Shown: positions 26,420 to 29,335 of the stretch, piece by piece
Numbering within the stretch: the stretch's first letter is position 1
Layout of the letters: the number at the start of each line of letters is the position of its first letter
Program-made: the position numbers and the translations under genes
Source: Escherichia phage JEP4
Length of the DNA: 39,195 bases
Sequence record: MT740315.1
Strand: one strand, 5' to 3'
The notes under the pieces: model-generated
What the model was told of the DNA's origin: nothing
What the model saw: the letters and a program-made list of their open reading frames with translations, nothing else
Database searches by the model: none

Positions 26420-26529
26420 TTTGACCTCCATTTTCTGTAGGCTTCGATGGCCTCACGAAACATCTTTTCATCGCCAATAAAAGTGGCGATAGTGAATTTA
26501 GTCTGGATAGCCATAAGTGTTTTATCCAT
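26416..26529 (-). CDS. kil: Kil-like host cell-division inhibitor (37 aa)
   Basis: MDKTLMAIQTKFTIATFIGDEKMFREAIEAYRKW matches recalled lambda Kil N-terminus; start overlaps cIII stop. Confidence 0.6.
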   Translation of the reverse strand: MDKTLMAIQTKFTIATFIGDEKMFREAIEAYRKWRSK

Positions 26530-26662
26530 TTTTGGGAACTCCTGGCTGATTAAGTACGTCGATGAGTCGTTTCCATCCGTCACGTAATTTACGGGTGATT
26601 CGTTCAAGTAAAGATTCGGAAGGGCAGCCAGCAACAGGCCACCCTGCAATGGCATATTGCAT
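26522..26662 (-). CDS. cIII: CIII-like protease inhibitor (46 aa)
   Basis: MQYAIAGWPVAGCPSESLLERITRKLRDGWKRLIDVLNQPGVPKNG matches lambda CIII; ORF-track 26722 start is an extension. Confidence 0.75.
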   Translation of the reverse strand: MQYAIAGWPVAGCPSESLLERITRKLRDGWKRLIDVLNQPGVPKNG

Positions 26663-26722
26663 GGTGTGCTCCTTATTTATACATAACGAAAACGCCTCGA
26701 GTGAAGCGTTATTGGTATGCAT

Positions 26723-26748: not shown

Positions 26749-26884
26749 AAAGAAGATTTCCAATAATCAGAACAAGTCGGCTCCTGTTTAGTTACGAGCG
26801 ACATTGCTCCGTGTATTCACTCGTTGGAATGAATGCACAGTGCAGTGTTTATTCTGTTGTTTATGCTAAAAATAAAGGCCACCA

Positions 26885-27136
26885 TCAGGCAGCCTTGTTG
26901 TAAATGTTGCAGGTATCAAGTAAGTAATTAGATGGAGCGCCATAAATTATGAATTCATCGTTTGTCGGGTCCATCTCCATCTCTTGGCCTATTGCCATTC
27001 TTGCGTCAGTGTCGTCAGCGGCGAAGCATAAAACAGCCCACGCACCCATTGTTTTAAAAAGAACTGCAATTGGCTGTGGTTTTACTGAATTTGCGTTAGC
27101 GCGAAAATCACAAATCGCACTTTCATGAAACTCCAT
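26885..27136 (-). CDS. Hypothetical protein (83 aa)
   Basis: ORF in the ral/ea10 position of the PL operon; C-terminal NKAA weakly recalls Ral but is not sufficient. Confidence 0.45.
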   Translation of the reverse strand: MEFHESAICDFRANANSVKPQPIAVLFKTMGAWAVLCFAADDTDARMAIGQEMEMDPTNDEFIIYGAPSNYLLDTCNIYNKAA

Positions 27137-27198
27137 ATCTCACCTCAAATAAGTGGTTTGCTGCCAAAACAATGAACCATCCGGAAATTCCAGATAGT

Positions 27199-27426
27199 TC
27201 ATAATTCACTCTTCAATACTTCCAACTTACTAATCGCCGATAGATATCCGCGCTGATAGGGCATCATCATTCCTTCGAGCTTGCCACTTCTTAACTCCTT
27301 CCTGAGCAATTGTATTGCTTGATCAATAACCTCTGCCTTAGCGTCCTTTATGGCTTGCTTGCGGGGCTTTGCTTTCTGCTTTGGCAGATTTCTCAAGCAT
27401 GATGGAATGTATGTCTGATTCATCAC
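27199..27426 (-). CDS. Hypothetical basic protein (75 aa)
   Basis: ORF immediately downstream of the N-like gene. Confidence 0.45.
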   Translation of the reverse strand: MMNQTYIPSCLRNLPKQKAKPRKQAIKDAKAEVIDQAIQLLRKELRSGKLEGMMMPYQRGYLSAISKLEVLKSEL

Positions 27427-27699
27427 TTACCTCGCTGTCAGTTGTTTTGATTTCCGGTAGCCTGCCGCGTAAATGGCTACGTTTGGCAGGCAAATACTTC
27501 CACTGCATTCATCTGCCTTCTTGCAGCGAAGGCTTCCGAGTGATGCTGCTTTATCTGCCCTGACGCAACCAGAGAGCTTTAGCGCAATTTTTCGTGCCAA
27601 TCGCTGTTCTTGCATTGCCTGTTCACGTTGAGCCTGTCTGCGTGCTCTGCGGCGATTTCTGGCGTTATCGTCAGCCAGATATGTAATGACTACTGTCAT
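27427..27699 (-). CDS. N-like transcription antiterminator with arginine-rich motif
   Basis: N-terminal ARM NARNRRRARRQAQREQ; GGAGG SD; first gene leftward of PL; nut sites with matching boxB on both arms. Confidence 0.6.
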   Translation of the reverse strand: MTVVITYLADDNARNRRRARRQAQREQAMQEQRLARKIALKLSGCVRADKAASLGSLRCKKADECSGSICLPNVAIYAAGYRKSKQLTAR

Positions 27700-27788
27700 G
27701 TTGACCTCCGATGATTGACTTTGGCGGTGACGCGCCGGGTGCTTATCTTCCGGTTGCCGTCGTGCAGCTGCACTTCACGCCACCCCAA

Positions 27789-27832
27789 AGCCAACTACTC
27801 TTTGGTTCCCGCATTTCGGCGGGACAATCCCA
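27789..27832 (-). promoter_or_regulatory. nutL (boxA-like AGCTCTTTAAC plus boxB hairpin)
   Basis: On minus strand GCTCTTTAAC followed by TCCCGC-CGAAAT-GCGGGA hairpin; identical boxB downstream of cro. Confidence 0.5.
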
Positions 27833-27893
27833 TCAATGTTAAAGAGCTTGCCAACCTGTTCCGTTTGGCTACCAGCGTCCTGCTGATGGCTTA

Positions 27894-28013: not shown

Positions 28014-28664
28014 TTATGGAAGGTTTGCTAGTTTTGCATCGACAACTACGCCGATGATTTTGCAGTTTCCGTTGATCTCGATCATCGGATATTGTGGGTT
28101 AAGTGGTTTTAGAAACTTCCTGCCTGCATCAATAACTAACTTCTTGAAAGTTGCCTCGTTTTCTCCTTCTAGCTTTGCAACTACCAGTTTCCCGTTACGC
28201 GGCTCTACTTCAGGATCGACGAGTATTATCATTCCTTCAGGGATACTGAGACCGGCCGGAGCCGTCATTGAGTCTCCCTTCACGTCCAACCAAAACGAAT
28301 CTTCTGAACAGTCTACGGTTGTATCGTACCAGTTATCTATTGCACGCTTATGATATGGTTCTACAGCTTCCATCCAGCATCCTGCGCTCACCCAGCTAAT
28401 CAGAGGGTATGACCCTCTTGGATCATGCCTACTGTGATAGGCAATGTTTGAAAGACTTTCCTCTCCTTTCATCAGATAGTCAGGGGAACACTTCAACGCA
28501 TTAGCCAGGGCGAGAAGATTCTCTCCATTTGGCTCTGTCTCAGAGCGTTCCCACTGAGATATGGCAACATTAGACACGCCGACCATCTTTCCAAGTGCGG
28601 CCTGCCTGATCTTGAGTTCTTTTCTCCGAGCGCGAATGCGCTCTCCCATCAATTGAGTTTTCAT
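28014..28664 (-). CDS. c2: Prophage repressor, P22 C2-type (HTH plus S24 peptidase)
   Basis: MKTQLMGERIRARRKELKIRQAALGKMVGVSNVAISQWERSETEPNGENLLAL matches P22 c2 as recalled; intact catalytic GDSM and FKK; Ala-Gly in linker. Confidence 0.95.
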   Translation of the reverse strand: MKTQLMGERIRARRKELKIRQAALGKMVGVSNVAISQWERSETEPNGENLLALANALKCSPDYLMKGEESLSNIAYHSRHDPRGSYPLISWVSAGCWMEAVEPYHKRAIDNWYDTTVDCSEDSFWLDVKGDSMTAPAGLSIPEGMIILVDPEVEPRNGKLVVAKLEGENEATFKKLVIDAGRKFLKPLNPQYPMIEINGNCKIIGVVVDAKLANLP

Positions 28665-28744: not shown

Positions 28745-28930
28745 ATGTACAAGAAAGATGTTATCGACCACTTCGGAACCCAGCGTGCTGTAGCTAAAGC
28801 GTTAGGCATTAGCGACGCAGCAGTCTCTCAGTGGAAGGAAGTCATCCCAGAGAAAGACGCCTATCGACTGGAAGTCGTTACAGCTGGCGCCCTGAAGTAT
28901 CAAGAAAGCGCTTACCGCAAAGCGGCATAA
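28745..28930 (+). CDS. cro: Cro, P22-type
   Basis: 61 aa MYKKDVIDHFGTQRAVAKALGISDAAVSQWKEVIPEKDAYRLE matches P22 Cro as recalled. Confidence 0.9.
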   Translation: MYKKDVIDHFGTQRAVAKALGISDAAVSQWKEVIPEKDAYRLEVVTAGALKYQESAYRKAA

Positions 28931-28937
28931 GCAAATT

Positions 28938-28980
28938 GCTCTTTAACAGTCATGGTCCTCATTCCCGCCGAAATGCGGGA
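28938..28980 (+). promoter_or_regulatory. nutR (boxA-like TGCTCTTTAACA plus boxB hairpin)
   Basis: GCTCTTTAAC followed by TTCCCGC-CGAAAT-GCGGGAA; same boxB as nutL. Confidence 0.55.
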
Positions 28981-29038
28981 ATACAACGCGCATAAGTTGA
29001 TGCGCATAACTTCTTATTTGTTAAGGAAATACTTACAT

Positions 29039-29335
29039 ATGGTTCGTGCAAACAAACGCAACGAGGCTCTAAGAATCGAGAGTGCGTTGCTTAACAAAAT
29101 CGCAATGCTTGGAACTGAGAAGACAGCGGAAGCTGTGGGAGTTGATAAGTCGCAGATCAGCAGGTGGAAGAGGGACTGGATTCCAAAGTTCTCAATGCTG
29201 CTTGCTGTTCTTGAATGGGGTGTCGTTGACGACGACATGGCTCGATTGGCACGACAAGTTGCTTCGATTCTCACCAATAAAAAACGCCCGGTGTGCAAGA
29301 CCGAGCGTTCTGATCAAATACAAATGGAATTTTAA
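29039..29335 (+). CDS. c1: C1 (lambda CII-like) lysogeny activator
   Basis: MVRANKRNEALRIESALLNKIAMLGTEKTAEAVGVDKSQISRWKRDWIPKFSMLLAVLEWGVV matches P22 c1 as recalled; ORF-track start 28952 would place nutR inside the gene. Confidence 0.8.
   Translation: MVRANKRNEALRIESALLNKIAMLGTEKTAEAVGVDKSQISRWKRDWIPKFSMLLAVLEWGVVDDDMARLARQVASILTNKKRPVCKTERSDQIQMEF

Follow-up and report, generated by a model that had tools for sequence, protein, structure and literature searches.

Proteins of the N type have been described as built of three modules, of which the arginine-rich motif (ARM) binds the boxB hairpin, the central one NusA and the C-terminal one RNA polymerase (RNAP) near the RNA exit channel (PMC3526286), and swapping of the C-terminal module has been noted among the P22-like gp24 proteins (PMC8022706). 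The closest described system to the one analyzed here is that of phage HK620, whose GenBank record AF335538 corresponds to Clark et al., 2001, as given in the record itself and in the reference list of PMC2629481. Its N protein has 90 amino acids, like that of Escherichia phage JEP4, occupies the same place after PL and is 97.8% identical, with two differences (L57I and D63E). The record also annotates a 'putative N-utilization leftward' site (nutL), 98.5% identical to JEP4 over 66 nt, and a 'putative N-utilization rightward' site (nutR) that is base-for-base that of JEP4, the identity extending through tR1 to the ribosome-binding site of cII. In contrast, the immunity regions between the nut sites are unrelated, HK620 carrying its own cI, cro and hkaS and JEP4 a C2 of the CUS-3/N7 type plus cro; behind N, HK620 has hkaQ, whereas JEP4 has a different small ORF.

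Another close relative is CUS-3 (CP000711), in which residues 1-62 of N (ARM and central region) and the boxB of both nutL and nutR are identical to those of JEP4, and cI-cro-cII are 99% identical. However, CUS-3 N has 99 amino acids and ends in a tail of the phage 21/lambda type (...RIYYRKPRSEMGVTCVGRQKMKLGSKPLI) instead of the P22-type tail present in JEP4.

The window analyzed in this work is the whole 39,195-nt sequence of JEP4 (record MT740315.1). It is a mosaic P22-like (Lederbergvirus-type) genome, with virion genes ~95% identical to those of phiv205-1, E212 and CUS-3, and an immunity region 99% identical to those of CUS-3, N7 and Gally. A mosaic junction lies near 27508, inside N, where the megablast match to CUS-3 ends, the DNA leftward of it being 98.3% HK620/HK629-like. 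The idea that JEP4 N is a new chimera arising from this junction at ~27508 was rejected, as HK620, HK630, mEp213 and a Stx1a phage carry the same full-length combination.

The N gene and the early operons of JEP4

The N gene (27427-27699, minus strand) encodes a protein of 90 amino acids (MTVVITYLADDNARNRRRARRQAQREQAMQEQRLARKIALKLSGCVRADKAASLGSLRCKKADECSGSICLPNVAIYAAGYRKSKQLTAR) followed by a stop codon. It is the first ORF after PL and the first gene of the PL operon, with PL at 27922-27894, nutL at 27847-27807 and the start of N at 27699, and was assigned from the ORF list and Pfam, PHROG and tblastn searches. The first-pass annotation had called it an N-type antiterminator, and this is borne out by a profile match of residues 11-90 to Pfam N_peptide (PF25694; 58.4 bits over a cutoff of 27.9, E = 1.1e-15), by the match to PHROG 271 'anti-termination protein N-like' (E = 4e-34), and by the identity in tblastn to proteins annotated as N, which reaches 98.9% with mEp213 N and, as with HK620, 97.8% with HK630 N. 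N of the Stx1a-converting phage LC744178 is 100% identical in the same type of search, and hundreds of E. coli prophages carry this protein. No model in NCBIfam matched N or the ORF after it, and a search of PDB sequences with JEP4 N returned no structure of an N protein, the only matches being chance ones to RNF168 (E = 0.35).

A consensus scan located PL (TTGACC and TAAATT, separated by a 17-nt spacer; minus strand), from which transcription would start near 27887, judging by the homologous pL start annotated in phage 21. Between boxB-L and the ribosome-binding site of N, the minimum free energy fold gives a structured leader (27714-27795, minus strand), with a long-range stem of ~20 bp that encloses two small hairpins (z = -2.6 for the 198-nt leader). 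This stem may have a function; it recalls the hairpin that RNase III processes in the leader of lambda N, which is involved in N autoregulation.

Behind N, a small ORF (27199-27426, minus strand; 74-75 amino acids) shows translational coupling with the stop codon of N (TAAGTGATG). Its match is to PHROG 5305, of unknown function, with E = 1.6e-37; it has no Pfam or NCBIfam match and is immediately followed by a strong terminator-like hairpin. In an Enterobacter prophage, the gene located directly after N (L012, 3273-3572) matches Pfam PF26859 'Phage_N_antitermin', and the JEP4 ORF in that place is unrelated to it. The hairpin behind the small ORF, an intrinsic-terminator-like, tL1-like element (27172-27202, minus strand), has a folding energy of -20.3 kcal/mol and z = -5.9, and a second terminator-like hairpin of the PL operon is found upstream of cIII (26875-26896, minus strand; z = -3.3). 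Downstream of both, Rfam identifies the cIII thermoregulator RF01804 (26617-26675, minus strand; 88.5 bits). In this stretch (26522-26675, minus strand), the cIII frame itself, which begins MQYAIAGWPV..., stops after 46 amino acids, being shorter than lambda CIII, as the HK620 record likewise notes for its own cIII.

To the right of PL there are a LexA-type repressor gene (28014-28664, with Peptidase_S24 and HTH_3 domains), a P22-type cro (28745-28930) and a lambda-type cII. The earlier remark that the start of this last gene (c1 by its P22 name), placed at 28952 in the ORF track, was too far upstream proved correct: ATG 28952 sits between boxA-R and boxB-R, and the true ATG is at 29039, so that cII corresponds to 29039-29335 (plus strand). 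Read from there, residue 1 aligns with position 1 of the Pfam Phage_CII profile and the protein is 95% identical to lambda CII; HK620 annotates cII at the equivalent of this ATG, and lambda also starts downstream. In the CUS-3 record (CP000711), cII (locus L001, 3152-3532) is given as 381 nt, beginning at the ATG inside nutR, which equals the over-long JEP4 28952-29335; deposited records with cII annotated in this way, such as that of CUS-3, should be corrected. Between nutR and cII there is also a hairpin (GCGCAU-AAGUUG-AUGCGC, 28988-29005, plus strand) with a U-rich sequence behind it, which HK620 has in identical form. This hairpin, not flagged by the terminator scan, may be part of tR1.

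The nut sites and the arginine-rich motif

Exact copies of the boxA decamer GCTCTTTAAC are present in nutL (27838-27847, minus strand) and in nutR (28938-28947, plus strand). The same decamer is the annotated boxA-L of phage 21 and is part of the nutL that the HK620 record annotates, while the copy in nutR, 8 nt past the cro stop codon, is identical to that of the annotated HK620 nutR. With one mismatch allowed, occurrences of the boxA 10-mer alone are within chance, and significance comes from its pairing with boxB, which follows after spacers of 13 and 15 nt. The boxB of nutL, UCCCGC-CGAAAU-GCGGGA (27807-27824, minus strand), was defined by its fold and by the near identity of this nutL with that of HK620; the boxB of nutR, AUUCCCGC-CGAAAU-GCGGGAAU (28961-28982, plus strand), has an 8-bp stem whose core (28963-28980) is the same as boxB-L. 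This 18-mer, TCCCGCCGAAATGCGGGA, exists in exactly two copies in the 39 kb, both on the transcribed strands; with up to three mismatches allowed, 0.02 occurrences are expected by chance, and no shuffled sequence gave two. The two hairpins are the dominant local folds (-10.5 and -12.5 kcal/mol, z = -3.4 and -4.7). At gathering thresholds Rfam gave no match for the nut sites, its sole hit in the whole window being the cIII thermoregulator. The presence of one and the same boxB in nutL and nutR, each behind GCTCTTTAAC, was reproduced. The hairpins and motifs were as the first-pass annotation had described them, but the limits it gave to nutL (27789-27832), and to the feature as a whole, leave out boxA-L.

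The canonical ARM that had been quoted for N is found in the translation, and corresponds to DNARNRRRARRQAQREQ, of the HK620/CUS-3 type (codons 11-27; 27619-27669, minus strand), as delimited by alignment and by an AlphaFold2 (AF2) model. Alignment with N family members, which had been proposed as a check of the N assignment, was done with eleven N proteins, including the translated N genes of CUS-3 and phage 21 (alignment A1). The Ala and Arg positions of the motif are kept across lambda, phage 21 and P22-like N proteins: A13, R16, R20 and R21 do not vary at all or reach at least 90% conservation among the lambda, phage 21, P22-like, HK620-type, Pantoea, Erwinia and Yersinia proteins. The HK620-type ARM is kept in 115-119 of 120 database homologues. 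The AF2 model, for which 25 homologues were used as input, predicts with moderate confidence a helix over the motif (pLDDT 81-86 for residues 11-40). At what we take to be the position matching W18 of lambda, the ARM of JEP4 N has no Trp.

When 14 phages and prophages with five ARM classes were compared, each class was found to have its own boxB loop, whatever the C-terminal module attached. The ARM of phage 21 occurs with a phage 21-type tail in phage 21 itself and with a P22-type tail in VT1-Sakai, HK629 and a Cronobacter prophage, in all cases with the boxB loop CUAACC. The HK620 ARM occurs with a phage 21-type tail in CUS-3 and with a P22-type tail in HK620, HK630, JEP4 and Enterobacter and Cedecea prophages, and the loop is CGAAAU in all of them. 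More widely, an ARM of the form DNARNRRRA(R/K)R goes together with a CGAAAU-loop boxB in HK620, CUS-3, JEP4 and the Enterobacter, Cedecea, Pantoea and Erwinia phages, the motif being DTAKNRRRARR in Pantoea PA-1 and DNARNRRRAKR in Erwinia 49, both with that loop. In Yersinia 29.18, where the ARM is of another kind, the loops are A(U/A)AGU; the loop of ST104 is that of P22 (GACAA), and that of lambda is GAAGA. The fact that boxB follows the type of ARM regardless of the tail supports cognate recognition between the two, and the natural two-by-two recombinants (HK620 or phage 21 ARM with phage 21 or P22 tail) show cleanly that the predicted boxB specificity lies in the first ~33 residues of N.

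The CGAAAU loop is invariant in eight distinct sites, in which three pairs of the stem have changed on both sides in a compensatory way (G-C to A-U, U-A to C-G and A-U to G-C) and 87.5% of the cells are paired, as opposed to 34-58% when the partner columns are slid. Since these eight sites, although distinct, are related, we consider that this covariation modestly supports the hairpin; the co-segregation of ARM and boxB is a stronger argument for matching nut sites. A simple GNRA tetraloop, with a C.U mismatch as its closing pair, could form in this loop, which is also kept in the nutR boxB of Pantoea PA-1 (L008, ~1005, minus strand), Erwinia 49 (L009, ~668, minus strand) and the Cedecea prophage (L014, ~1631, minus strand). 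Counting from the loop, the third pair of these three boxB elements is a C.A or C.C mismatch, and those of Erwinia 49 and Cedecea also show a compensatory change from G-C to A-U at the second pair; this conserved, nutR-specific mismatch might be functional.

Modules, cysteines and alternative readings of the locus

Translations and the alignment of the eleven N proteins divide JEP4 N into an ARM module (residues ~1-33), a central module (34-62) and a tail (63-90). The central segment LARKIALKLSGCVRADKAASLGSLRCKKA (codons 34-62; 27514-27600, minus strand), which contains C45 and C59, is identical to that of phage 21 N and is also common to CUS-3, VT1-Sakai and HK629 N in alignment A1. A role in NusA binding would correspond to it solely by the place that it occupies among the three modules described for N proteins (PMC3526286). 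The tail DECSGSICLPNVAIYAAGYRKSKQLTAR (codons 63-90; 27430-27513, minus strand), which contains C65 and C70 and ends in ...SICLPNVAIYAAGYRKSKQLTAR, is a module of the P22 gp24 type according to tblastn and alignment A3, where its CLP motif and final GxRKSKQxTAR are nearly invariant. Residues 47-90 are 57-59% identical to P22/ST104 gp24, and residues 37-90 are 100% identical to VT1-Sakai N (tblastn). No similarity to the mapped NusA- and RNAP-binding segments of lambda N was detectable in JEP4 N.

The cysteines had been pointed out as an unusual trait of the C-terminal half. The peptide string quoted is indeed there, with cysteines at residues 45, 59, 65 and 70, but they do not distinguish JEP4 N from the N proteins already known: phage 21 N contains exactly the cysteine segment CVRADKAASLGSLRCKK, and cysteines are present in ST104 gp24 (two) and lambda N (one) as well. 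Four cysteines within 26 residues could nevertheless form a metal-binding or redox-sensitive module and make JEP4 N a new, regulated N variant, and two of them are indeed widely conserved: C45, at times one column off, is kept in ~116 of 120 homologues, and C70 in 63 of the ~69 that have a P22-type tail, reaching at least 90% in alignment A3. The other two are not, C59 being present in 60 and C65 in only 9 of the 120, with a Tyr at position 59 in the representative of a 491-member cluster. Moreover, the N proteins of phage 21 and CUS-3, with a different tail, do without C65 and C70, P22-like gp24 has a Leu at the position of C70, and the AF2 model gives residues 41-90 a pLDDT of 47-59, with helix or coil only and no compact fold that would bring the cysteines together. 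With four-cysteine conservation and a confident compact fold both lacking, a Cys4 zinc-binding module was rejected, and we regard any metal- or redox-dependent variant as very improbable. The low confidence over residues 41-90 fits an N protein that would be disordered until it binds its partners.

The two identical hairpins could likewise be read as something other than N targets, that is, as terminators or as processing or stability elements, their identity being due to recent recombination only. They are GC-rich, they are sited in a 5' leader and in intergenic DNA, and lambdoid genomes are highly mosaic. However, neither has a U tract behind it (the sequences there are ACCAAAGAG and AUACAACGC), for which reason intrinsic terminators were rejected, and the terminator scan flags neither of them. 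Both are located 13-15 nt past a boxA decamer, an arrangement also seen in phage 21, lambda and P22-like phages, and the type of hairpin switches along with the type of ARM in natural recombinants of six genera, all of which leaves this alternative with a probability close to nil. A further possibility is that N is a decaying, inactive remnant in a defective prophage, given that truncated or frameshifted relatives do exist in databases (P0059, P0063, P0067). Against it, the JEP4 ORF is intact and 100% identical to the copy in another phage record, it is 98-99% identical to the N proteins of the plaque-forming phages mEp213, HK620 and HK630, and both nut sites, PL, PR, cI, cro and cII are all intact; decay of this gene seems to us most unlikely. 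The reading that we favor, and which is very probably right, is that in this ORF a mosaic P22-like E. coli phage encodes a functional N antiterminator of the lambda type, belonging to the HK620 specificity class.

Proposed working and comparison with known systems

As a functional N protein of the HK620 class, JEP4 N would act on the PL and PR transcripts, each of which carries a nut site with boxA GCUCUUUAAC, a spacer of 13-15 nt and boxB UCCCGC-CGAAAU-GCGGGA. Its arginine-rich helix (~residues 11-33) would bind boxB on the nascent RNA, while the central segment and the P22 gp24-type tail would hold the complex onto NusA and RNAP, and boxA would recruit NusB/NusE, the modified polymerase becoming resistant to termination. 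Leftward, read-through of the hairpins at 27202-27172 and 26896-26875 would then allow expression of cIII and the recombination genes and, rightward, read-through of tR1 would allow that of cII-O-P. These binding partners and the antitermination activity are those expected from the paradigm of lambda, P22, phage 21 and H-19B, and the contacts with NusA and RNAP are assumed from N proteins that have a different sequence in these regions.

The HK620-class ARM/boxB pair is widespread, being found in prophages of Escherichia, Enterobacter, Cedecea, Pantoea and Erwinia. There is, in our estimation, an even chance that, next to the pairs of lambda, P22 and phage 21, it constitutes a fourth code of N-boxB recognition, different from those three and orthogonal to them, made up of the Trp-less ARM and a six-nucleotide C-GAAA-U loop, and apparently never characterized biochemically or structurally. 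In open-access full text we found no paper printing the ARM or the boxB sequence of this class, and the literature on HK620 with boxB or nut yielded only comparative-genomics remarks and no experiments dealing with this specificity class. If its specificity were measured, the pair could be useful as an orthogonal RNA-tethering module.

With regard to the systems described so far, phage 21 (N, OL657228) has in common with JEP4 the central segment of N, including both of its cysteines, the boxA decamer and the layout of the site, and differs in the ARM (GTAKSRYKARRAELIAERR), in the boxB (CUCAAC-CUAACC-GUUGAG, plus a nutR variant) and in the C-terminal tail. The gene 24 protein of P22, in its ST104 orthologue, shares with JEP4 N the MTVITY N terminus, the GGSVLLPxVALYAAGxRKSKQITAR module and the Pfam family, along with boxA, whereas its ARM (GNAKTRRHERRRKLA) and boxB (GCGCUGACAAAGCGC) are different and its middle part is unrelated, with two cysteines of its own. 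Lambda N resembles JEP4 N in being built of three parts and encoded after PL and in the conserved Ala and Arg positions of the ARM, and its nut sites likewise consist of boxA, spacer and boxB; the proteins are ~22% identical, with different C-terminal tails, and the lambda boxB loop (GAAAA/GAAGA) has five nucleotides and that of JEP4 six, both containing GAAA. In the lambda RefSeq record (NC_001416), N is annotated with 133 amino acids (538-939 of locus L011), an extension (MCQSRGVFVQDY...) preceding the canonical MDAQTRRRERR start.

The closest match remains HK620. Because its record annotates N, nutL and nutR in nearly identical form, the gene, both of its targets and their interpretation are already public, and the discovery value of the JEP4 locus is small, N and nut sites having been publicly annotated since the HK620 genome (2001). 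Judged by its sequence, what JEP4 carries in its N gene and two nut sites is an ordinary early antiterminator system of P22-like E. coli phages, already known from the annotation of HK620.
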